Assembly (NCBI GenBank): GCA_965262725.1
Contig: OZ253555.1
Span: forward strand, 256,001 to 320,000
Direction of reading: 5' to 3'
DNA: 64,000 nucleotides
DNA from: Dehalococcoidia bacterium
GTDB lineage: Bacteria; Chloroflexota; Dehalococcoidia; UBA2979
Both the position numbers and the translations under genes were made by a program. The notes beneath the pieces are model-generated. The model saw only the letters and a program-made list of their open reading frames with translations, ran no database searches and was not told the origin of the DNA. Shown one piece after another: positions 34,787 through 62,792 of this stretch. How positions within the stretch are numbered: position 1 is the first letter of the stretch; the number at the start of each line of letters is the position of its first letter.

Positions 34787-35471
34787 CCAAGAGCGCGATC
34801 GGCCTCAACATCGCCTTCATGTCCGTGGAAGCCGGCGGACTGAGCGCCGAGACACGCACCTGCATCGCGTCCGTCGCCATGGAGCACCCCGCCGCCTTCG
34901 GGATCGGCCCACCGCCCACGGCCGATGACTTTGCAGGCCTGTTCGGCGCAGGCATACAGATGAACCTCTGCCTGACCGACGAGGAGGCCGCCGCTCTCGC
35001 AGGTGCGGGCGGCGACGGACTCCCGCCGCCCTCGGTCATACGGTGCATGGAGGAGCAGATCGGCAGCCTGGACGACCTCCTCGCCGCCTTCTTGGCTCTG
35101 ATGGGCGAGGAACCGGATCCCAGCGCGGCGCTCGGCCTGTTCGCGGCAGCTCAGGAATGTAGGGTCAGGGGCTGGCGCGGTGCGAGCCGTAGGCGGTGGC
35201 GCATCAGTTCCAAGCCGGTTTCCCGGTGGTGCCCAACTCCACGGCCATAGCAGCGTCCGTCTCCAGCCCCTGCCACATCGAACCGGACGTGAGGTTCTCC
35301 CTCATCCGGCTCACCGATGCCCTTCACCAGATGGCATGCAGCGCTCCCCACAACGTGGGTCGTGCCTTGGCCAGCCGGTACAGCATGTGCGGAGAGCCTC
35401 GAACTGGGAATGATGCTTACATCTGGCCCCACTTTGATCCTCTGATCTGGCCCCACCCCCGGGGACCGGGA

Positions 35472-36254
35472 TCAGGTCGTTGGGGCACCTCCTCTCGGGG
35501 AGGTCGAGGCCCGGAGCCGGTAGGACTCGGTGCCGGTCTCGATGATATGGGCACGGTAGGTGAGGCGGTCAACGACGGCCGCGGCGAGACGAGGGTCGGT
35601 GAAGATGCGGCCCCACTCGGAGAACGGGGAGTTGGAGGCGACGGCGACCGATGCCCGTTCCTCGCGCTCGGTCAGGATCTGGAACAGCATTTCGGCACCG
35701 CGCGGGTCGAGGTGGACGTACCCGAACTCATCCAGGCAGAGCAGGTCGAGGCGGCCGTAGCGGGCGACGAGGCGTGAGAGCGCGCGATCATCCGACGCTT
35801 CGGCCAGTTCATTCACCAGGGCGGCCGTGGTCATGTACCGCACGCGCAGCCCCAGGTGGCAGGCGGCCATGCCGAGGCCGATGAGCAGGTGTGACTTCCC
35901 GGTGCCGCTGTCACCGAGCAGGACGACGGGCTCGCCCCTTTCGACCCAGTCGCAGCGCTCCAGCGTGGCGAGCGCCGGCGCGTCGACTGTCGGCGCCGCC
36001 TCGAGGTCGAAGTCGGCGAGGTACTTGAAACGCGGGAACCGCGCCTCGACGATACGGCGCTGACGGCGCCGCTCCTCACGGTCATCGCGTTCGGCTCCCA
36101 GCACTTCGGCGAGATAGCCCAGATGGGTGATCCGGTCTCGGACCGCGGCTTCGGCGAGCGGGAGCGCCTGCTTCCTGACGGTGGGGAGACGGAGCTCGCG
36201 GCAGATCGCCTCGATTGTCAGCTCCGCGGCCTGGTCGGTGAGGGGTGCTGTCAT
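35472..36254 (-). CDS. istB: IS21 helper ATPase IstB
   Basis: GDSGTGKS, LLCLDE and AAVVDRL motifs. Confidence 0.9.
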   Translation of the reverse strand: MTAPLTDQAAELTIEAICRELRLPTVRKQALPLAEAAVRDRITHLGYLAEVLGAERDDREERRRQRRIVEARFPRFKYLADFDLEAAPTVDAPALATLERCDWVERGEPVVLLGDSGTGKSHLLIGLGMAACHLGLRVRYMTTAALVNELAEASDDRALSRLVARYGRLDLLCLDEFGYVHLDPRGAEMLFQILTEREERASVAVASNSPFSEWGRIFTDPRLAAAVVDRLTYRAHIIETGTESYRLRASTSPRGGAPTT

Positions 36255-36270
36255 CGGGTGCCTCCTGTGG

Positions 36271-37905
36271 TCAGCGTGCCGTCGACACCGCAGCGGTGAC
36301 GGCGGTTGTGGTGGTGTGCGACGCGTTCTCGGCAGACCGCGGAGCGCGGGAGCGCCCGCCCGGCGACGTGCCGGGCCATCGGGAATCACCCGAGAGCAGC
36401 GCATCGTAGCCATCGAGGAGCGGGGCAGGTCGGTCGTAGCGCTCCAGGTGCGGTCTCTCGACGGCGGCGTCTGGTGGCCTGCGGTCGGCGAGACGGCGCG
36501 CCTCGATGGCGACCAGTTCGGGGTTCACCGACTGGATCCTGTTGACCGTCCCGAGCGCGGCGTGCACCGCCGTGAAGGGAAGATGGCGATGCAGGAGCAG
36601 GACCTCGATGTACGCCTGCGTGCCCGCGCGGTCGCCGAGCTTGCGGCGGGCGCGGTCCCAGAAGCGCTGATGCTCGGCTGTGACGTGTCCCTTCGCACGC
36701 GCCTGCTGGAGCGCCACCGAGCCCGGGACCGCCCCGGGCTTGCGCGCGAGCACCTCCAGATAGTGGTCGAGCAGCAGGACCTCTGCTCCGGTGCGGGCGC
36801 TGCGCTCGTGGTGGGCGACTTCACGCCCCTCGGCCCACACGGTCAGGCTGTTCCCGGACAGCCGCACGTCCAGCTTCCGGCCTGCATAGGCCGCCGGGAC
36901 CGAGTAGCGGGAGCTACGCACGGCGATGCGCGCCTTGCGGTCGACCTTCGCGCGCAGCGGGATTGACGGGTCGAAGCGCTCCGCCGGAAGCGGACGCAGC
37001 GAGGCCTTCTCGTTCTCTCCCATCTCGCCGACGGTGGCGAGGCGGCTCTCGATGTGCCGGGCGTCGTCGGTGCGGTCCGCCTCCCGCACTCGTTCGTTCA
37101 GCTCGCCGAGGGTCGCCACCTTCGGGACCGGCACGAAGTGCCGCCGGCGGAAGCGGCCGACCTCGCCCTCCACACCGCCCTTCTCGTGCGCGCCCTCGAT
37201 GCCGGGCTCACAGAAGAAGCTGTCGAAGCCGTAATGCGAGCGGAGCGCGATGAAGCGCTCGGTCTGCAGGCGCTCGCGTCCCTGCAGCACGGTGGTGACG
37301 GCCGCCGTCAGATTGTCGTAGCGGATGCGCCGCGGCACTCCGCCGAGCCGCTCGAAGGCGACCACGTGCCCCTCGAGCAGAGACTCCTGGCCCTCGCCGA
37401 CGAAGCAGACGTGCGCCGCCCGCCCCGAATGCGAGAGCCGCATCACGAACATCGCCAGCCGGGTCTCGACGCCCTCCAGCCACACCGTCACCGTGCCGAA
37501 GTCGACCTCCGCCTCCTCGCCGGGAGGATGGACCTGCGGGATCGTCACAACCGCGCGCCCGCCCTGGATCTCGCGACGCAGGCGCGCGACGCAGGCGCGG
37601 ACCGTGGGCTCGGCCACCGTCGCCCCGTGTTCGTCGACGAGGCGCTCCCAGATGCGCCGGGCCGTGTGCCGCTGCTTGCGCGGCGCGCTGAGGTCGTCCA
37701 CGAGCCAGCCCCGGATGACCGAGACGTACGGCCCGAGCTTCGGGGCCACGCGGGTCGCCTGCTTGCGTTCCGGGGGTATCGCCGACCCAAGAGCCTGCCG
37801 CACCGTGCGCCGGTGCACGCCATGCCGGCGTCCCAGCTCATGGATCGACAGCTCCTCCTCCCTCGCCATCCGTCGGATAGACTCGAACAGCTCCACTCTC
37901 GACAC
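36271..37905 (-). CDS. istA: IS21 transposase IstA
   Basis: PGEEAEVDFG, YDN and HEKGGVE motifs. Confidence 0.92.
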   Translation of the reverse strand: MSRVELFESIRRMAREEELSIHELGRRHGVHRRTVRQALGSAIPPERKQATRVAPKLGPYVSVIRGWLVDDLSAPRKQRHTARRIWERLVDEHGATVAEPTVRACVARLRREIQGGRAVVTIPQVHPPGEEAEVDFGTVTVWLEGVETRLAMFVMRLSHSGRAAHVCFVGEGQESLLEGHVVAFERLGGVPRRIRYDNLTAAVTTVLQGRERLQTERFIALRSHYGFDSFFCEPGIEGAHEKGGVEGEVGRFRRRHFVPVPKVATLGELNERVREADRTDDARHIESRLATVGEMGENEKASLRPLPAERFDPSIPLRAKVDRKARIAVRSSRYSVPAAYAGRKLDVRLSGNSLTVWAEGREVAHHERSARTGAEVLLLDHYLEVLARKPGAVPGSVALQQARAKGHVTAEHQRFWDRARRKLGDRAGTQAYIEVLLLHRHLPFTAVHAALGTVNRIQSVNPELVAIEARRLADRRPPDAAVERPHLERYDRPAPLLDGYDALLSGDSRWPGTSPGGRSRAPRSAENASHTTTTAVTAAVSTAR

Positions 37906-38990
37906 ACTCCTCTTCCCTCGCTCCGGGAGTCATGCAGTCACCCGAGCGTAGGTCCTGGATGGGTCGGGGGTGGGGCCAATTCAAAGGATCAAAACGGCTC
38001 CAGGTGGGGCCAATTCAGAGCATCATTCCCACCGAACCCTACCAAGTGGTTGCTAGCCCCGAGGGGCACTCACCAGTCCACACCCCCAGCAACATGCACG
38101 GACAAAGTAGGGGTCCTTCCCATCACCGGCGGTTATGTTGTCCGTCCGGCTCCAGCGGTACTACGACCCCCTCCGCCACCCTTCCGGCTGGCTGTCCACT
38201 TCCCGGCTCTGACCGGTTATAGGACGCCTCGCTCCGACGCCCTCTCACAGGGTGCCGGGCCGGGGAGGGCTTCTCCGGTTCCCGTCGCTACCTTCCGTAC
38301 GTTCCACGTCCCATACGCCGGGAGGTTTCTTGAGGCTGCATTCCAGGATCTTCACCTCGTCCATGGCCTTCGCCCTGACCACCCGGGCTCGGCTCCTCCT
38401 TGGTCCTGTCAATAGACAGGCGAGTCTCACGGCGCGGCAGACTTCGCGTCATGCTGCGGACCGCACGTTTGCTCCCCCTCATAGGGCTCTTGACGTCGGG
38501 CTTCGACGCAGACCGTTTCCCGTCCACGCCGCCGACCTGCTAACGGGCCTCCTGACAGTTACCCGTGCCGGACTCTCACCGGCTGGCAGCAACGAGCATG
38601 TCTCCGGACCGGTCACGTCATCACGTCACCACCCCTTCGACTTCCGGACGCACGCGGGGCCGACCTCGAAGGAGCCCCAGGTCTGCCTAGTGTCCCGAGT
38701 TGCAAATGCTGAAAACAATCGCACCGAGCCTCGCAGGCTTGGTCCGCTCAGTGGAGGCTTGGGTCGCAACTGGAACGAGCACCGGATGCGCTTCATCTCG
38801 CACAAGACCACCGACCAGATCCTTGAGTAGGGTCAGGGGCTGGCGCGGTGCGAGCCGTAGGCGGTGGCGCATATTGCCAGGCCGGTTTCCCGGTGGCGCC
38901 CATCTCCACAGCCGTAGCATCGTCCGTCTCCAGCCCCTGCCGCCTCGAACCGGACGTGAGGTTTTCCCTCATCCGGCTCACCGATGCCCT

Positions 38991-41190
38991 TCACCGGGCG
39001 GCATGCGGGGTGCCCCGCCACGGTCGATATGGCCGTGGTGCCACGACGCGCTGTCCAGCTAGCGAGATGAGCCCCAGACGGTCGGCGACGGGAAACGGGT
39101 GCCCGCGATGGCGTCGCCGCCAACGCAACCGCTTCCCCAGCCAGAGTTTGAGTCTCCACATGGCAAACCAGTGCAGGACGTCGAACGCCCTCGCCGAGTT
39201 GCCGTAGCGGAAGTAGCTCATCCAGCCGCGGAGGTAGCGATTGACTTCCTCCACGACCTGCCGGGGACTCAGCAGCAGACGCAACCGCGCCGTGATTTCA
39301 CGGATGCGGTCCCGCGCCCGCTGCATCGCTCGCCGTGAGGGCCAGCGTGCGAGGAACTGGATATTCTTGTTGCGCTTCGCACGTACCCAGCGATGCTCGA
39401 AGCCGAGGAACTCCAGCCCCTCGCCTCCCTCCCGCAGGTGCACGATGCGCGTCTTCTCCGCCTTGAGCTCCAGTCCGAGCTCACCCAGCAGGTCACGCAG
39501 CAGGGCCAACGCCCGCTCCGCTTCCTCCCGGCTCCGGCAGAGCACCACGAGGTCATCCGCATAGCGCACCAGCACGCCATCACCCTTCGCCTCCCAGTCC
39601 CGGTCCAACCGGTGCAGGTAGACATTGGCCAGCAGCGGGGACATCACCCCGCCCTGCGGCGTACCCGTCGCGCTGTGCTGCACGACCCCCGACTCCATCA
39701 CACCGGCACGCAGCATCGCCCGTACCAGCTTCAGGAGATTGCGGTCGCATATCCGTTCCTCGACGGCCGTCATCAGACGGTCGTGTAGGGTCAGGGGCTG
39801 GCGCGGTGCGAGCCGTAGGCGGTGGCGCATCAGTTCCAAGCCGGTTTCCCGGTGGTGCCCAACTCCACGGCCATAGCAGCGTCCGTCTCCAGCCCCTGCC
39901 ACATCGAACCGGACGTGAGGTTCTCCCTCATCCGGCTCACCGATGCCCTTCACCAGATGGCATGCAGCGCTCCCCACAACGTGGGTCGTGCCTTGGCCAG
40001 CCGGTACAGCATGTGCGGAGAGCCTCGAACCCTACCAAGTGGTTGCTAGCCCCGAGGGGCACTCACCAGTCCACACCCCCAGCAACATGCACGGACAAAG
40101 TAGGGGTCCTTCCCATCACCGGCGGTTATGTTGTCCGTCCGGCTCCAGCGGTACTACGACCCCCTCCGCCACCCTTCCGGCTGGCTGTCCACTTCCCGGC
40201 TCTGACCGGTTATAGGACGCCTCGCTCCGACGCCCTCTCACAGGGTGCCGGGCCGGGGAGGGCTTCTCCGGTTCCCGTCGCTACCTTCCGTACGTTCCAC
40301 GTCCCATACGCCGGGAGGTTTCTTGAGGCTGCATTCCAGGATCTTCACCTCGTCCATGGCCTTCGCCCTGACCACCCGGGCTCGGCTCCTCCTTGGTCCT
40401 GTCAATAGACAGGCGAGTCTCACGGCGCGGCAGACTTCGCGTCATGCTGCGGACCGCACGTTTGCTCCCCCTCATAGGGCTCTTGACGTCGGGCTTCGAC
40501 GCAGACCGTTTCCCGTCCACGCCGCCGACCTGCTAACGGGCCTCCTGACAGTTACCCGTGCCGGACTCTCACCGGCTGGCAGCAACGAGCATGTCTCCGG
40601 ACCGGTCACGTCATCACGTCACCACCCCTTCGACTTCCGGACGCACGCGGTATCGACTCGAAACACGAGGCGATGTCCGTCTCCACTACCCACCGCCTGC
40701 CCCGCCACGCCTCGTCAATGAGGACCTGCAGGGCGTCATGGGCCGAACGCTTCGGGCGGAAGCCGAAGCTGCATGGCAGGAAGTCGGCCTCGAAGACCGG
40801 CTCCGTCACGAGCTTCAGCGACGCCTGCACGATGCGGTCGCGGACCGAAGGAATCGAGAGCGGGCGCTCTTCCGACCGACCGGGCTTGGGTATCCAGACC
40901 CGGCGGCTCGGCTGCACCCGGTATCTTCCCTCCTTCAGTTCCGTGGCCAGTTCATCCAGCAGGCGCTCCACGCCGTAGCGCTCGACCTCGGCGAGCGTGA
41001 CGCCGTCGATACCGGCTGCGCCGCGATTGCGACGCACCTGCTCCCACGCGCGCTCCAGAATGTCTCTGCGATAAACCTTGTCGTAGAGCGCATGAAAGCG
41101 TCTATTGGGGTCGGCCTTGGCCGCCCGGTAAAGCGTGCGTTGTAGTGTTCGGACCTTGTCTTGGATGGAGTTAGCCGCTTGGGCACTCAC
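38991..41190 (-). CDS. ltrA: Group II intron RT/maturase (about 445 aa when spliced, no endonuclease domain), interrupted by ORF-less intron copy 2
   Basis: GAAGIDG, IPKPG, DRIVQ, SFGFRP, DIASCFESIP|HDRL, GTPQGG, RYADD, FLGF and LRGWMSYF motifs. Confidence 0.93.
39785..40646 (-). mobile_element. ORF-less group II intron, copy 2 (862 nt), inside the RT gene
   Basis: Same sequence as copies 1 and 3 by eye. Precise removal gives CCG C|AC GAC (P-H-D). Confidence 0.95.
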
Positions 41191-41808
41191 CGATTCATCC
41201 CTACTCCCCACGCGTGAGCAAAGCAGGGGTCCTTCCCATCACCGGCGGTTGTGTTGTCCGTCCGGCTCAAGCGGTACTACGACCCCCTCCGTCACCCTTC
41301 CGGCTAGCTGCCCACTTCCCGGCTTTGACCGGTTATAGGGCACCTCGCTCCGACACCATCTCGCAGGGTGCCGGGCCGGGGAGGGCTTCTCCCGTTCCCG
41401 TCGCTACCTTCCAAACGTTCCACGCCCCTTACGCCGGGAGGTTCCTTGAGGCTGCAGCGCAACGCGCATTCAGGATCTTCACCTCGTCCATGGCCTTCGC
41501 CCTGAATTGCCGGGCTCGGCTCCTCCACTATCCGTTAACGACGCGGCAGGCTTCGCTTGATGCTGCGGACCGCTTGGTTGCTCCCCCTGATAGGGCTCTT
41601 GACGTCGGGCTTCGACGTGGACCGTTTCCCGTCCGCGCCGCCGACCTGCTAACGGGCCTCCTGACAGTTACCCGTGCCGGACTCGCACCGGCTGGCAACG
41701 ACGAGCATGTCTCCAGACCGGTTACGTCATCACGTCACCCGCCCTTCGACTTCGGGACACACCAACCTCACCGGATATCTCAATCGCATTTCCAATTCAG
41801 GACACTAG

Positions 41809-43714
41809 GACGCTGGTGCCAAACTCGAGTCACGGCGGCCGCAGTCGGTGTGAGAGGGAAGTGTAGCGTCGGGTGGGCGCGGGTCGGGAGTTGCGCCGCT
41901 GGGGAGTGAGCGGGGCCGGCATCGACCCGGGGACCCCCGGACGCAGGCTCTCCCGCAGTCGCCCCCGCCTCCGTCTCCCCTACGAGGGCGCTGTGACCGC
42001 CCACCGGGTTGGTGTGTGATGCAGGCCCAGGACCGCCAACCGCGCCAGGTTGACGGAGGCGGCGAGCAGATTGTGGTCGGCGTCGACCTTGAGACGGCCC
42101 CGGACACGGGCGACGCGGCCCCCGTGTCTGCGACGGGTCGTATGCGCCACCTTGCGTTCGACTCGCGAGCGGACCGCGCGGTAGCCGGATAGCCACCCGG
42201 GAGTCTCCTGGCGTGCCCGGGCGGCCGCGAGACTGGCCTCGTGGACGCCCACCGCGACGGTGCGTCCCCCGCGCGATGTGGTGCACTGCGCGCGAAGCGG
42301 ACAGGGGCTGCAGGCGCCCCGGAAGCAGGCGGTTCCCGAGCCGTCGGAGGCGCGGCGAATCGGCACCGTCACCTCCGCGGGGCAGGTCACGGTGCCCCTC
42401 TCCAGGTCGATGGTGAATCGCTCCTTGCTGAAGTGCTGATGCGGCGCGGTCGCTCTCTGAGTGCGGCAGCGGGACTCGACCCCGTGCTGCTCCAGCACCT
42501 CCTGGAACGCGCCCGAGCCGTAGGCCGAATCGCCGTAGACCGTCGGTGTCCCGGTGCTCGCCTCCGCAGCCGCGTCGGCGGCTAAGTCGTGTGCCCCTGC
42601 GTCCTCCAGCAGGTCCGTGATCAACTCCTCCGCAACCTCCCCGTCCGCCACGTTGCCCGCGGTCACCGTCGTGTGGGTGATGAGCTCCGACTCCGGGTCG
42701 ACCGCCAGATGGCCCTTGTAGCCGTCGAAGCCGTGCGCGGAGCTCTTGCGTCCGTGGCGGGCGTCGGTGTCCACGGTCGAGATGATGCGGTCCCTCGCTA
42801 CCCGCCGCGCAATCACGAAGCGCCCGCCGTCGTCCTGCTCGAGGTCCTGCCCCACCACGGCCGCACAGAGCTCGCCCGCCCGCTCGACGTGCCCGTCGAG
42901 CTCCCGGCCCTCCAGCACCCGCAGGCAGCGCGATACATCGGCCGCCAGCTCGTCGATGAGCGCCCGCGCGGCCTCGCGGTCCTCCCAGTCGCACGGAGGC
43001 TTCCCAGCGGCCCGGTAGTCGTCATCGCGCTCCAGCACCGCCCGCAGCTCGGCCCCGAGTCCGGGCGCATCGAGGCTCTCCGCCTCCCGCAGCAGCCCGC
43101 GGAGCGACGAGCGGAGCAACGTCACCGTGTCCTGCGTGGCGACGGCGTCGTAGAGCGGCGTGGAGTCCAGCACACGCTGAGCAGAGAGCAGCTTCGCCTC
43201 GCGCGCCACCGCGAGCGTGGCCTCGAAGATGCGCCGGGGACGCTCGGAGCCGGCGAGGCGAGCGCGCATCGAGACCAGGACCGTGTGCACGAAGCCCGGC
43301 GCGTCGTAGTCGAGTCCGCCGCAGGCGAACTTCCAGCGGGCGTCCCACTCGAAGGCCGCCACCGCCTCGCGGTCGGAGAGGCCGTGGAGTCGCTGCAGCA
43401 CCATGACCGTGGCGACGACGCGGGACGGAACGCTGCGGCGGCCGCGAGCGGCGAAGAGGTCGGCGAACATCTCGTCGGGGAAGAGGCGTTCACCCTCGCG
43501 GGCCAGGAGGGTCCAGATCGAGTTCCCGGGAACCCTCTCAGCGACGTAGGCGGTGCTCTTGAAGAGGTGGGGCTGCCTGGAGGTCTCTCCGAGTGTCATG
43601 GGCGCGCCTTCCGCTGCGAACGGAACTGATCACCCACATGATCGCATCCCGTGACTCAGCTCGCAACGCGACCCCGCCTCCAGCGGCACCCACCGTCCAA
43701 AAAACACCAGCCTC
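41809..43714 (-). mobile_element. IS1182/IS5-like element
   Basis: IRs gacgctggtg / gaggctggtg; CTAG at 41805-41808 and 43715-43718. Confidence 0.8.
41980..43599 (-). CDS. IS1182-like transposase
   Basis: GLSDREA, VLDSTPL, DGYKGH, GDSAYG, zinc-ribbon CxxCPLRxQC and RSRVERK motifs. Confidence 0.85.
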   Translation of the reverse strand: MTLGETSRQPHLFKSTAYVAERVPGNSIWTLLAREGERLFPDEMFADLFAARGRRSVPSRVVATVMVLQRLHGLSDREAVAAFEWDARWKFACGGLDYDAPGFVHTVLVSMRARLAGSERPRRIFEATLAVAREAKLLSAQRVLDSTPLYDAVATQDTVTLLRSSLRGLLREAESLDAPGLGAELRAVLERDDDYRAAGKPPCDWEDREAARALIDELAADVSRCLRVLEGRELDGHVERAGELCAAVVGQDLEQDDGGRFVIARRVARDRIISTVDTDARHGRKSSAHGFDGYKGHLAVDPESELITHTTVTAGNVADGEVAEELITDLLEDAGAHDLAADAAAEASTGTPTVYGDSAYGSGAFQEVLEQHGVESRCRTQRATAPHQHFSKERFTIDLERGTVTCPAEVTVPIRRASDGSGTACFRGACSPCPLRAQCTTSRGGRTVAVGVHEASLAAARARQETPGWLSGYRAVRSRVERKVAHTTRRRHGGRVARVRGRLKVDADHNLLAASVNLARLAVLGLHHTPTRWAVTAPS

Positions 43715-55050: not shown

Positions 55051-55224
55051 GGTGGCGGCTCCGGATGGGCTCGGGGTGGAGATGGGATGCCCGGTGCGCG
55101 CTCGCCCCACGCGGAGCGACGGCCCGGGCTAGAGCATCATCCTTCCGGCGTGCCGCCGTGCGGCGGCGCCCCGGCGCCGACTCGGTGCCTCCGTGGGGAT
55201 GGTGCTCTGCATCAACGTGCCTCT

Positions 55225-55346
55225 GCTCATCGCTCCCGGCGCTCGTGCGCGGCCACCGGGTCGGCTGGGGCACCGCATCCCCCCTCGGTCGGGGGAGGGT
55301 TGCCGTGGCTTCGTCGGGCCGATTCCCTCTGCCACTCGTGATGAAC
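55225..55346 (-). ncRNA. SAM-I (S-box) riboswitch
   Basis: TTCATCACGAGTGGCAGAGGGAATCGGCCCGACGAAGCCACGGCAACC...GGTGCC...GATGAG matches the SAM-I consensus. Confidence 0.85.
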
Positions 55347-55386
55347 GACCCCGGCGTGCATACGCGTCCCGGGGCGCCCATCGAGG

Positions 55387-61021: not shown

Positions 61022-62792
61022 TCAGTCGGAATTCTCTGCCTGCCCCAGCGGGGGCTCGGTCGGGGCATTCAATATCGCCTTCTTGACCTCATCCGAGAAG
61101 TCCCGTTGTAGGGTCAGGGGCTGGCGCGGTGCGAGCCGTAGGCGGTGGCGCATCAGTTCCAAGCCGGTTTCCCGGTGGTGCCCAACTCCACGGCCATAGC
61201 AGCGTCCGTCTCCAGCCCCTGCCACATCGAACCGGACGTGAGGTTCTCCCTCATCCGGCTCACCGATGCCCTTCACCAGATGGCATGCAGCGCTCCCCAC
61301 AACGTGGGTCGTGCCTTGGCCAGCCGGTACAGCATGTGCGGAGAGCCTCGAACCCTACCAAGTGGTTGCTAGCCCCGAGGGGCACTCACCAGTCCACACC
61401 CCCAGCAACATGCACGGACAAAGTAGGGGTCCTTCCCATCACCGGCGGTTATGTTGTCCGTCCGGCTCCAGCGGTACTACGACCCCCTCCGCCACCCTTC
61501 CGGCTGGCTGTCCACTTCCCGGCTCTGACCGGTTATAGGACGCCTCGCTCCGACGCCCTCTCACAGGGTGCCGGGCCGGGGAGGGCTTCTCCGGTTCCCG
61601 TCGCTACCTTCCGTACGTTCCACGTCCCATACGCCGGGAGGTTTCTTGAGGCTGCATTCCAGGATCTTCACCTCGTCCATGGCCTTCGCCCTGACCACCC
61701 GGGCTCGGCTCCTCCTTGGTCCTGTCAATAGACAGGCGAGTCTCACGGCGCGGCAGACTTCGCGTCATGCTGCGGACCGCACGTTTGCTCCCCCTCATAG
61801 GGCTCTTGACGTCGGGCTTCGACGCAGACCGTTTCCCGTCCACGCCGCCGACCTGCTAACGGGCCTCCTGACAGTTACCCGTGCCGGACTCTCACCGGCT
61901 GGCAGCAACGAGCATGTCTCCGGACCGGTCACGTCATCACGTCACCACCCCTTCGACTTCCGGACGCACGCAGCACCCACTCGAGGTATCCGGGATCCTC
62001 GCTTCTGACGTCCACCAGCGCACGGCCGGCGTACCTCCCGAAGTTCATCAGGACCCTACCGTCGCGCCACACAAGCCTCCCATCGGGGTCGAGCCACGAT
62101 GGGTCGGGGCGTCGCTGGCCCGAGAGACGATCGAGTTCCTTGAGTTCGGTGGGGAGATTTGCGTAACGCTCGAACTGTCCCCACAGCACCTCAACCGAGC
62201 TCATCGCGTCGGCGATCGCGCTGTGCGCAGCTTCGATCTCTCGCCCCGTGTAGAAGTCGACGGCCGCCGCCAGGTCCCTGCGTTCGCGATCGTGAAAGAT
62301 CCTGAGGGCGTCCACGACCCACCGATGGGAGATCGAGAACTCGATCCCCGCCCGGCGGAACTCTGCCTCCAGCAGCGGAATGTCGAAGCGGACGACACCG
62401 AAGCCCGCGAGATCGCAGTCGAGCAGGAACTCGGCCACCGCCGGCGCCGTCTCGGCGAACACTGGCCGCTCGGCAACGAGCTCGTCGGTGATCCCGTGCA
62501 CCGCGCTGGCCCCCGCTGGTATGGGGACGCCGGGATTGACTCTCGTGTGGAGGAGTTCGGTCTCCCCCGACGGGTACAGCTTGATTGCACCGATCTCCAC
62601 GATGCGGTCGCTCAGCGGGTCCGTTCCCGTCGTCTCGAGATCGATGAAGACGAGCGGGCGGAGCAGGCCGAGCCGGCCCGCGAGCTCGCGAGCCTTCGGC
62701 TCTAGCGTGCTGGGCCGCTGCGCGAGCCTCCTGGCTCCGTGATCGTCCGACGATACGCTCTCGATGAGGTGCTCCCTATCAGTCGCCCACAA
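61022..62792 (-). CDS. DEDD 3'-5' exonuclease (DnaQ-like, about 302 aa when spliced), interrupted by ORF-less intron copy 3
   Basis: FIDLETTG, FD and AHSAIADA motifs. Splicing joins YLEWVL-Q-RDFSDEVK. Start codon uncertain. Confidence 0.85.
61108..61969 (-). mobile_element. ORF-less group II intron, copy 3 (862 nt)
   Basis: GTGCG...CCCTAC ends; same sequence as copy 2 by eye; no TSD. Confidence 0.95.

Follow-up and report, generated by a model that had tools for sequence, protein, structure and literature searches.

A group II intron without an open reading frame, its putative exon-binding guides and its insertion sites in a Dehalococcoidia genome

Introduction

The window analyzed in this study is a stretch of 64,000 nucleotides from a Dehalococcoidia bacterium (assembly GCA_965262725.1, contig OZ253555.1, positions 256,001 to 320,000; G000:C1:256001-320000 in the coordinates used here), and it carries group II intron elements that all lie on the minus strand. 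One of these introns encodes a reverse transcriptase (RT) and is referred to as the helper, while the others are copies of an 862-nt element without an RT, referred to as the ORF-less intron (ORF, open reading frame), one of which is nested in the RT gene of the helper. A preliminary description of this locus had proposed that the two introns differ at three short positions, the putative exon-binding sites EBS1, EBS2 and EBS3, each matching its own target in the exons, the intron-binding sites IBS1, IBS2 and IBS3. These positions were examined here by comparative folding, by covariation with the exons of related introns and by a census of insertion sites in the whole genome. The results make it very likely that the ORF-less intron, equipped with its own diverged guide, has spread to sites that match this guide.

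Organization of the intron elements

The features of the locus are collected in Table 1. Domain I-IV cores of the RF02003 (group-II-D1D4-4) type were found in all four intron copies of the window, with 95.3-102.8 bits against a gathering score of 49; those of the three ORF-less copies (38449-38585, 40442-40578 with 102.8 bits, and 61765-61901) are mutually identical, and that of the helper lies at 41558-41694 (95.3 bits). Domains V and VI of the helper match RF00029 at 38914-38981 with 41.5 bits (cut-off 40). The ORF-less copies score slightly below this cut-off (36.5-37.5 bits), as do the copies of a third intron type of this genome, type C, the domain I of which is 79% identical to that of the ORF-less intron. 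The termini fit the pattern 5' GUGYG / 3' AY, with GUGUG in the helper, GUGCG in the ORF-less and type C introns and ...CUAC at the end of all of them, and a bulged A, read by eye, lies 7 nt from the 3' end of the intron.

Domain VI is unusually long, as its distal part contains an insertion of about 90 nt between GGCAGGGGCUGG and CCAGCCCCUG-A-CCCUAC (window 38827-38945, 39785-39905 and 61108-61228), and the RF00029 matches therefore span 143-158 nt. Long domains VI with other insert lengths were also found in the relatives L029-L031.

The ribozyme is retained in the ORF-less element, as are the beginning of domain IV and ~100 nt from the 5' end of the RT gene; across domains I-III this element shares 86% identity with the helper. 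As part of the explanation that is favoured here with high confidence, the 862-nt element would have arisen by loss of the ORF from a IIB-like group II intron that has no endonuclease.

Table 1. Coordinates of the introns, guides, targets and associated genes. Positions are those of the window, except for the last row, which gives genome positions; the vertical bar marks the boundary between exon and intron.
Feature	Position	Strand	Details
Helper (RT-encoding) group II intron	38827..41762	-	2936 nt with the nested intron, 2074 nt without it; starts GUGUG, ends ...CUAC
Helper EBS1 CAAUU	41505..41509	-	Terminal loop, alignment A1 columns 89-93
Helper EBS2 CGGAUA	41529..41534	-	Family register is ACGGAU pairing with -14..-10, plus A:T at -15
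Helper EBS3 A	41429	-	Faces +1 T at 38826; A1 column 169, internal loop
Helper target	41763..41777	-	IBS1 GGTTG (41763-41767), 4-nt linker GTGA, IBS2 TATCCG (41772-41777); within short dispersed repeat
RT gene, 5' part (N-terminal 188 codons)	40647..41211	-	RVT_1 profile 1-83; TIGR04416 positions 2-137
RT gene, 3' part (remaining RT, maturase (X) domain and stop)	38991..39784	-	RVT_1 84-204; GIIM 1-73; TIGR04416 139-352
ORF-less intron, copy 2 (862 nt), nested in helper RT gene	39785..40646	-	Starts GUGCG, ends ...CUAC
ORF-less EBS1 GUGGU	40371..40375	-	
ORF-less EBS2 GACUCG	40414..40419	-	Followed by extra hairpin CCUGUC-UAUU-GACAGG, absent from helper
ORF-less EBS3 U	40306	-	Faces +1 A at 39784
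ORF-less home site in RT gene	40647..40661	-	IBS1 ACCGC (40647-40651), linker GAT, IBS2 CGAGTC (40655-40660), T at -15 (40661)
ORF-less copy 3, ectopic site e2	61108..61969	-	5' exon ...T-CGAGTG-GGT-GCTGC|, 3' exon A; 5+5+1 pairs
ORF-less copy 1, ectopic site e1, 5' part (intron nt 1-621)	38033..38653	-	5' exon end ...CGAGGTC-GGC-CCCGC|
ORF-less copy 1, 3' part (intron nt 617-862)	35159..35404	-	3' exon begins A at 35158
Insertion sequence splitting ORF-less copy 1	35405..38032	-	Flanking intron pieces share 5 nt, as expected of a target duplication
Second group II intron lineage, examples	G000:C1:336424-337533, 1683319-1684386, 2472058-2473167		

Guide sequences and their targets

The coordinates, letters and exon sequences given for the guides in the preliminary description proved correct on the minus strand. 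The scaffolds of the helper and ORF-less introns are identical on either side of EBS1, and the 5-mer itself is wholly different. The site in the helper RT gene, previously named as the best match of the ORF-less guide, is indeed so, with 12 of 12 possible pairs (5 + 6 + 1). The other two copies in the window lie at CGAGT-GGGT-GCTGC|A (copy 3) and at CGAGGTC-GGC-CCCGC|, where the +1 A is found beyond an inserted insertion sequence (IS; copy 1). At the homologous alignment positions, type C carries ACCCU (EBS1), GAGUCC (EBS2) and A (EBS3), and its exons read GGACUC-GAU-CGGGU|U in two copies and CGACUC-CUU-CGGGU|U in another. Recognition of the 3' exon by a delta-delta' pair, as in IIA-type introns, was also considered and rejected: all three local types have a G on the 5' side of EBS1, and their +1 bases are A, U and U, so that such a pair does not fit the ORF-less intron.

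Covariation and comparative fold

The guide positions were compared in 11 introns, three from this genome and eight from other genomes (L002, L003, L007 and L009-L013), of which L007 and L009-L013 were obtained by a search of 401 genomes of the phylum, 22 of them with a match. EBS1 pairs with its cognate exon at 4.55 of 5 positions, compared with 1.87 for non-cognate exons, and EBS2 at 4.36 of 6 positions, compared with 2.21; the observed sum of cognate pairing was reached by 0 of 100,000 permutations. EBS3 (column 169) forms a Watson-Crick pair with the +1 nucleotide in all seven introns with a readable 3' exon, namely U-A in two, A-U in three and G-C in two. The spacing of 3-4 nt between IBS2 and IBS1, which had been remarked upon earlier as wider than usual, is real: a 3-nt gap is common to L009, L010 and L012 and is thus a family trait rather than a local oddity.

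The 11 aligned guide regions were folded together with RNAalifold and the pairs were recounted after two weak intra-loop pairs had been removed. The resulting comparative fold comprises 41 pairs in eight helices, in which 98.2% of the cells are paired, compared with 32-42% when the partners are slid by 1-3 columns. Compensatory changes occur in 16 of the 41 pairs, and the covariation score was reached by 0 of 500 shuffles. In this fold, EBS1 (columns 89-93) occupies a 9-nt terminal loop and EBS2 (columns 45-50) is single-stranded where helices 4 and 5 join, immediately upstream of a variable hairpin missing from the helper and L003. The 3-nt strand of an internal loop, which separates two helices and faces columns 33-35, contains EBS3; this is the topology of the coordination loop of IIB/IIC introns. 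A terminal-loop EBS1, a single-stranded EBS2 and a single-nucleotide EBS3 in an internal loop fit exon recognition of the IIB/IIC type. The assignment of the three differing positions as EBS1, EBS2 and EBS3, which had been left to be checked by folding, is therefore upheld by their loop or junction positions, their covariation with the exons and their ability to predict the ORF-less insertion sites genome-wide.

Insertion sites in the genome

In total, 28 5' ends of the ORF-less intron were found in the genome; 24 belong to full-length copies with 100% identity, one belongs to a copy with 99.9% identity, and the other three belong to interrupted copies. The same RT-gene site holds 15 of these copies, in 12/12 of the near-identical helper copies and 3/3 of the type C copies, and 12 further copies are ectopic, at mutually unrelated sites. 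The remaining one forms the second member of a head-to-tail tandem in the RT gene of a helper copy (G000:C1:549500-551223, locus L034), an arrangement that would fit insertion beside an earlier copy with the U of EBS3 pairing with the first G of the intron.

The 12 ectopic sites were scored in a fixed register (IBS1 at -5..-1, IBS2 at -14..-9 and IBS3 at +1) against a background of 200,000 random genome positions and 20,000 simulated sets of 12 sites. The mean score of the ORF-less guide is 4.67 of 5 for EBS1 and 4.17 of 6 for EBS2, with EBS3 paired at 7 of 12 sites; the corresponding random means are 2.50, 2.35 and 0.15. The total averages 9.42 of 12, which no simulated set (0/20,000) reached, compared with 5.0 at random positions. 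Scores at background level were obtained on the same 12 sites with the guides of the helper (3.17; random 3.94) and of type C (4.67; random 4.21). A is found at +1 in seven of the 12, compared with 15% expected (p about 5e-4). The column profile shows C at -4 and -1 (11/12 each), C/T at -3, G/A at -2, G at -11 (10/12) and G at -13 (9/12), and essentially the consensus suggested in the preliminary description, CGAGT-N5-C(C/T)GC|A, recurs across the ectopic sites. As part of the same well supported explanation, the ORF-less guide would direct reverse splicing to T(-15)-CGAGUC(-14..-9)-N3-NCYRC(-5..-1)|A(+1).

The most informative column is T at -15, present in nine of the 12 ectopic sites and also in the RT-gene, helper and type C sites; when the register is allowed to slide, T stands directly 5' of a (C/A)G(A/G)G core in 11 of the 12 sites, as judged by eye. 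As is the case for RmInt1 and RmInt2 (PMC4075523, PMC4615759), the protein probably recognizes this T. A pair of the EBS2a-IBS2a type (PMC8643678) was considered as an explanation for T-15: an A lies directly 5' of EBS2 in the ORF-less, helper and type C introns, but the register of the helper differs and T-15 is absent in L010-L013. A longer IBS1 was rejected, as bases that could pair with the loop nucleotides are not enriched at -6 and -7.

A second, unrelated group II lineage is present in about 14 copies with RNA of the RF02005 (D1D4-6) type and mostly contiguous RT genes, the products of which are 36-41% identical to the helper RT. The ~90-nt insertion in domain VI serves as a landing site for this lineage (L033; L001, L003 and L005). 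In the triple nesting of L033 (G000:C1:732400-737600), an RF02005 intron lies at nt 722/723 of an ORF-less intron, in domain VI, and this ORF-less intron itself lies within a type C RT gene. Insertions of ~1.9 kb occupy the homologous position in domain VI of helper-like introns in other metagenome-assembled genomes (MAGs; L001, L003 and L005), and in L003 the RF02005 core starts just past it. One ectopic ORF-less copy (e7, G000 1524130) sits between two RT-like matches of a single second-lineage intron.

The reverse transcriptase gene

The perfect ORF-less site lies in the conserved motif CFESIP|HD of the helper and type C RT genes, which makes each of these genes a twintron. What stands out here is that the ORF-less intron splits every one of the 15 cognate genes (helper and type C) within the RT domain, and the genome holds no uninterrupted one. 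In the window, the two halves of the helper gene score 172 and 217 bits against TIGR04416, each below the whole-protein cut-off of 300 bits because the gene is split, and excision of 39785-40646 rejoins the frame FESIP|HDRLM, which is then open over 461 codons. Scans with Pfam and TIGR04416 profiles detected no HNH or endonuclease (En) family at E<=0.01 in either half, which agrees with the earlier reading of the RT as endonuclease-less.

Relatives in MAG records labelled Dehalococcoidia are 79-91% identical. Among them, L002 is an uninterrupted intron that aligns with the 2074 nt of the helper in one piece (87%). The motif DIVSCFESI(P/S)H is contiguous in four of the five relative loci checked (L001, L002, L003 and L005), and L004 gave no match to it; the empty site in these four keeps T-15, the IBS2 CGAGTC and the +1 A. 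The best named plasmid matches to the RT belong to Streptomyces and Rhodococcus introns (56-61% identity). Rh.js.I1 has been placed in the En-less group 'g1' (PMC3552965), and the 56% match on a Rhodococcus jostii RHA1 plasmid provides a lead, and only a lead, to membership of the RT in this group.

All of the sequencing runs examined consist of contigs, in which missing coverage carries no weight. In run X10, a contig of low depth (depth 3, ~93% alike) joins 39784 to 40647 and skips exactly 862 nt; the same run shows both intron pieces together with diverged RT flanks. For a 1401-nt stretch, a fraction of 0.62-0.69 of the sampled words is present in several of the runs X10-X18, which come from other studies; the 862-nt intron alone makes up approximately this share. 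This is a hint that other samples contain nearly identical ORF-less copies flanked by diverged sequence.

Orientation relative to replication

The dnaA gene lies at 477,809-479,134 and the cumulative GC skew reaches its maximum at 2.51 Mb. Up to 409,808 and again past 2,562,191, the ORF-less copies lie on the minus strand; from 537,614 to 2,536,486 they lie on the plus strand. The two exceptions to this pattern are both inside helper copies. Every one of the 12 ectopic copies points in the direction of fork movement (binomial p = 0.0005), with the caveat that e11, at 2.536 Mb, lies near the terminus and that the skew is flat between 0 and 0.45 Mb.

The helper target lies in a dispersed repeat of ~190 nt (window 38684-38826 and 41763-41810; L038:1362-1553) with at least two sequence sub-families, the 163-aa frame of which has no Pfam match. 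The genome contains 14 empty helper sites, 11 of them exact, and most are oriented against fork movement: 10 of the 12 occupied sites are co-directional, compared with five of the 14 empty sites (Fisher p = 0.021). Such a bias is what would be expected of En-less introns that use the lagging-strand template and a nascent DNA primer. It has been described for RmInt1 (PMC4075523) and for several En-less classes (PMC8919778).

Discussion

In the mechanism proposed here, the inner intron would splice from the RT messenger RNA by means of its perfect 5 + 6 + 1 pairing, and the RT/maturase would then be translated and would bind the helper, type C and ORF-less lariats. An RT would have to act on the last of these in trans because the 862-nt element has none of its own. 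At replication forks, the ribonucleoproteins may reverse-splice into lagging-strand template that is single-stranded, wherever a site matches the guide of the RNA concerned, and nascent DNA would prime cDNA synthesis because the protein has no endonuclease. We can only infer which RT acts in trans; two cognate variants (helper and type C) and the unrelated second lineage are present.

Several findings weigh against this explanation. Interruption of all 15 cognate RT genes means that the supply of RT is itself unproven, and the approximately 14 RT genes of the second lineage could in principle act instead. The RNA-labelled runs X19 and X20 hold only short pieces, one of them 263 nt of domain I, and show neither transcription nor a spliced junction. 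Single-sequence minimum free energy folds of the two guide regions are no better than those of shuffles (z = 0.14 and 0.23) and place parts of the guides in ad hoc helices; the loop assignment thus depends on the comparative fold only. Within the family, pairing is poor in L007 (3/5 at EBS1 and 1/6 at EBS2), L011 (3/6 at EBS2) and L013 (1/6 at EBS2), the 5' ends of which were chosen by eye (non-canonical GCGUG in L013), so that some may be mis-set or ectopic, and the EBS1 pairing of the helper contains two G-U pairs. Among the ectopic sites, e4, e7 and e8 (3/12) pair at only 1-3 of 6 EBS2 positions in the fixed register and need a slide of 1-2 nt, and +1 is other than A in five of the 12. The 12 helper sites belong to one repeat family and are not independent. 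Finally, about 0.9% of random positions already score >=10/12 when sliding is allowed, and therefore the guide alone cannot explain the use of only 12 ectopic sites: it is necessary, but not the sole determinant of site choice.

A rival to RNA guiding is that the RT protein reads the site motif as DNA and that the complementarity is coincidental. T-15, the most conserved column, has no contiguous pairing partner in the ORF-less RNA, and pairing is imperfect at single sites. However, the same positions change together with the exons in 11 introns to a degree that no permutation reached, three types of Watson-Crick pair occur at EBS3, and neither the helper guide nor that of type C matches the ORF-less sites, all of which renders purely protein-based recognition extremely improbable. 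It is also highly unlikely that the elements are now immobile, their distribution reflecting past bursts and gene conversion, or the inner intron being a mere passenger of a twintron, with the ORF-less RNA limited to splicing today. The lack of an uninterrupted cognate RT gene, the several copies broken by IS elements or other introns and the lack of RNA evidence in X19 and X20, which hold short pieces only, would be in keeping with such decay. Transport as a passenger, however, cannot place 12 stand-alone ectopic copies that are 100% identical and fit the ORF-less guide rather than that of the helper, and the RT frame of the window is open once the inner intron is removed. Moreover, the type C and helper scaffolds differ by ~20% and yet hold identical inner introns, from which recent independent invasions can be argued, as was done for TeI3 (PMC2882425).

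A related question is whether the ORF-less intron is mobilized by the RT of the unrelated second lineage instead of the helper or type C RT. About a dozen genes of this D1D4-6 type are uninterrupted, in a genome in which every cognate gene is split, and members of the lineage are nested in domain VI of ORF-less and helper introns (L033; L003). Group II RTs usually bind the DIVa of their own intron, and the ORF-less intron keeps a helper-like start of domain IV and the region of the RT start codon, next to domains I-III that closely resemble those of the helper; the second-lineage RT is only distantly similar to the helper RT, at the identity given above. In addition, cross-complementation is reported as partial and only among close relatives (PMC4615759, PMC2882425), and mobilization by the second lineage is accordingly judged to be highly unlikely. 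The favoured explanation remains mobilization of the ORF-less intron in trans by a cognate RT at sites that match its own guide.

A more speculative consequence may follow from the interrupted genes. With all 15 cognate RT genes split in the RT domain, no RT would be made before the parasite splices, and the parasite probably needs the RT/maturase to splice efficiently. It is tentatively suggested, as a possibility to which rather less than even weight is given, that the ORF-less intron is an obligate gatekeeper of its own helper in a self-reinforcing and possibly bistable loop. If this were true, the loop would set the retromobility of the whole intron community; no description of such a loop in bacterial twintrons was found in the literature compared.

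Comparison with known systems

A close precedent is the TeI3 (ORF-less)/TeI4 (RT-encoding) pair of families in Thermosynechococcus elongatus, for which mobilization in trans has been shown experimentally (Mohr, Ghanem and Lambowitz 2010, PMC2882425). There, as here, ORF-deleted derivatives occur beside related RT-encoding introns with EBS sequences that differ to match their own sites, and identical ORF-less copies are found in the helper RT ORF as twintrons, in insertion elements and at other sites (PMC2882425). The present element resembles TeI3 in that it has no RT ORF, a related RT-encoding intron is present in the genome and multiple identical copies lie at guide-matching sites. It differs in three respects. 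The T. elongatus introns are of the CL/IIB1 class with En-containing intron-encoded proteins (IEPs; PMC2882425), whereas the RT here has no En and the RNA matches Rfam D1D4-4. TeI3 inserts between two start codons, so that RT can be made without splicing from a start downstream of the insertion (PMC2882425), whereas the insertion here is in the middle of the RT domain in 15/15 cognate genes. In addition, IBS2 and IBS1 are 3-4 nt apart here, unlike in TeI3/TeI4.

The En-less RT/maturase and the home site in a repeated mobile element are shared with RmInt1, RmInt2 and Sr.md.I1 of Sinorhizobium (class D/IIB3; PMC4075523, PMC4615759). The same two reports describe T-15, the most informative column here, as critical in RmInt1 and RmInt2, and further likenesses are the single-nucleotide EBS3-IBS3 pair, the diverged guides among related introns of one genome and the lagging-strand-template bias. 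In RmInt2, a U at EBS3 gives head-to-tail tandems by pairing with the first G of the intron (PMC4615759). The RmInt1 target layout (IBS2 at -13..-9, a 7-nt IBS1 and a 1-nt linker) is found neither in the local introns nor in the relatives L009, L010 and L012; IBS2 here lies at -14..-9/10, IBS1 has 4-5 nt and the linker has 3-4 nt. Furthermore, a natural ORF-less derivative is present here, whereas none is described for RmInt1 in the portions of the literature compared.

In Methanosarcina acetivorans, ORF-less and RT-encoding introns home into related intron sequences and form multiply nested arrays (Dai and Zimmerly 2003, as described in PMC4424553 and PMC2882425). Nesting is shared, with one triple nesting here (L033), but that host is archaeal. 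Engineered targetrons (Ll.LtrB, EcI5, RmInt1 and TeI3c/4c) likewise combine one RT with RNAs in which EBS1, EBS2 and EBS3 (or delta) have been changed so as to select new DNA targets (PMC3898094, PMC4075523); these are laboratory constructs, whereas the retargeting here is natural and its activity is putative. Reviews describe bacterial ORF-less introns as rare and as co-occurring with related IEP-encoding introns (PMC4424553). No description of this element or genome was found in the literature searched, supplements being outside the search.

The preliminary description had proposed a naturally retargeted integration system in which one RT serves RNAs with different guides. The fit between guides and targets sustains this proposal, the RT acting in trans is as qualified above, and the system is not of a new kind given the T. 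elongatus precedent (PMC2882425). The strategy is already documented, and the established view of how group II introns proliferate is left unchanged. The locus nevertheless offers a natural data set for the targeting rules of an En-less lineage without an experimental model, with 28 copies, 12 independent ectopic sites, three variants of the guide within a single genome and 14 helper sites that are empty. The rules that it shows are 4-5 bp at EBS1, 5-6 bp at EBS2, a 3-4 nt linker, T-15, a 1-nt EBS3 and a strict replication-orientation bias. It also supplies candidate parts for compact targetron-like tools and a test case for the coexistence of an ORF-less parasite and its helper when every helper gene has been invaded.

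Other features

The IS that splits ORF-less copy 1 contains a 544-aa ORF at 36271-37905 that matches the C-terminal domain of Mu transposase and a 313-aa ORF; from this layout it is presumably IS21-like. ORFs of the same two sizes also break the type C copy L032, and about 15 similar AAA-like frames occur across the genome. Elsewhere in the window, an S-adenosylmethionine (SAM) riboswitch lies at 55224-55347 on the minus strand (RF00162, 58.7 bits; gathering score 44.4).

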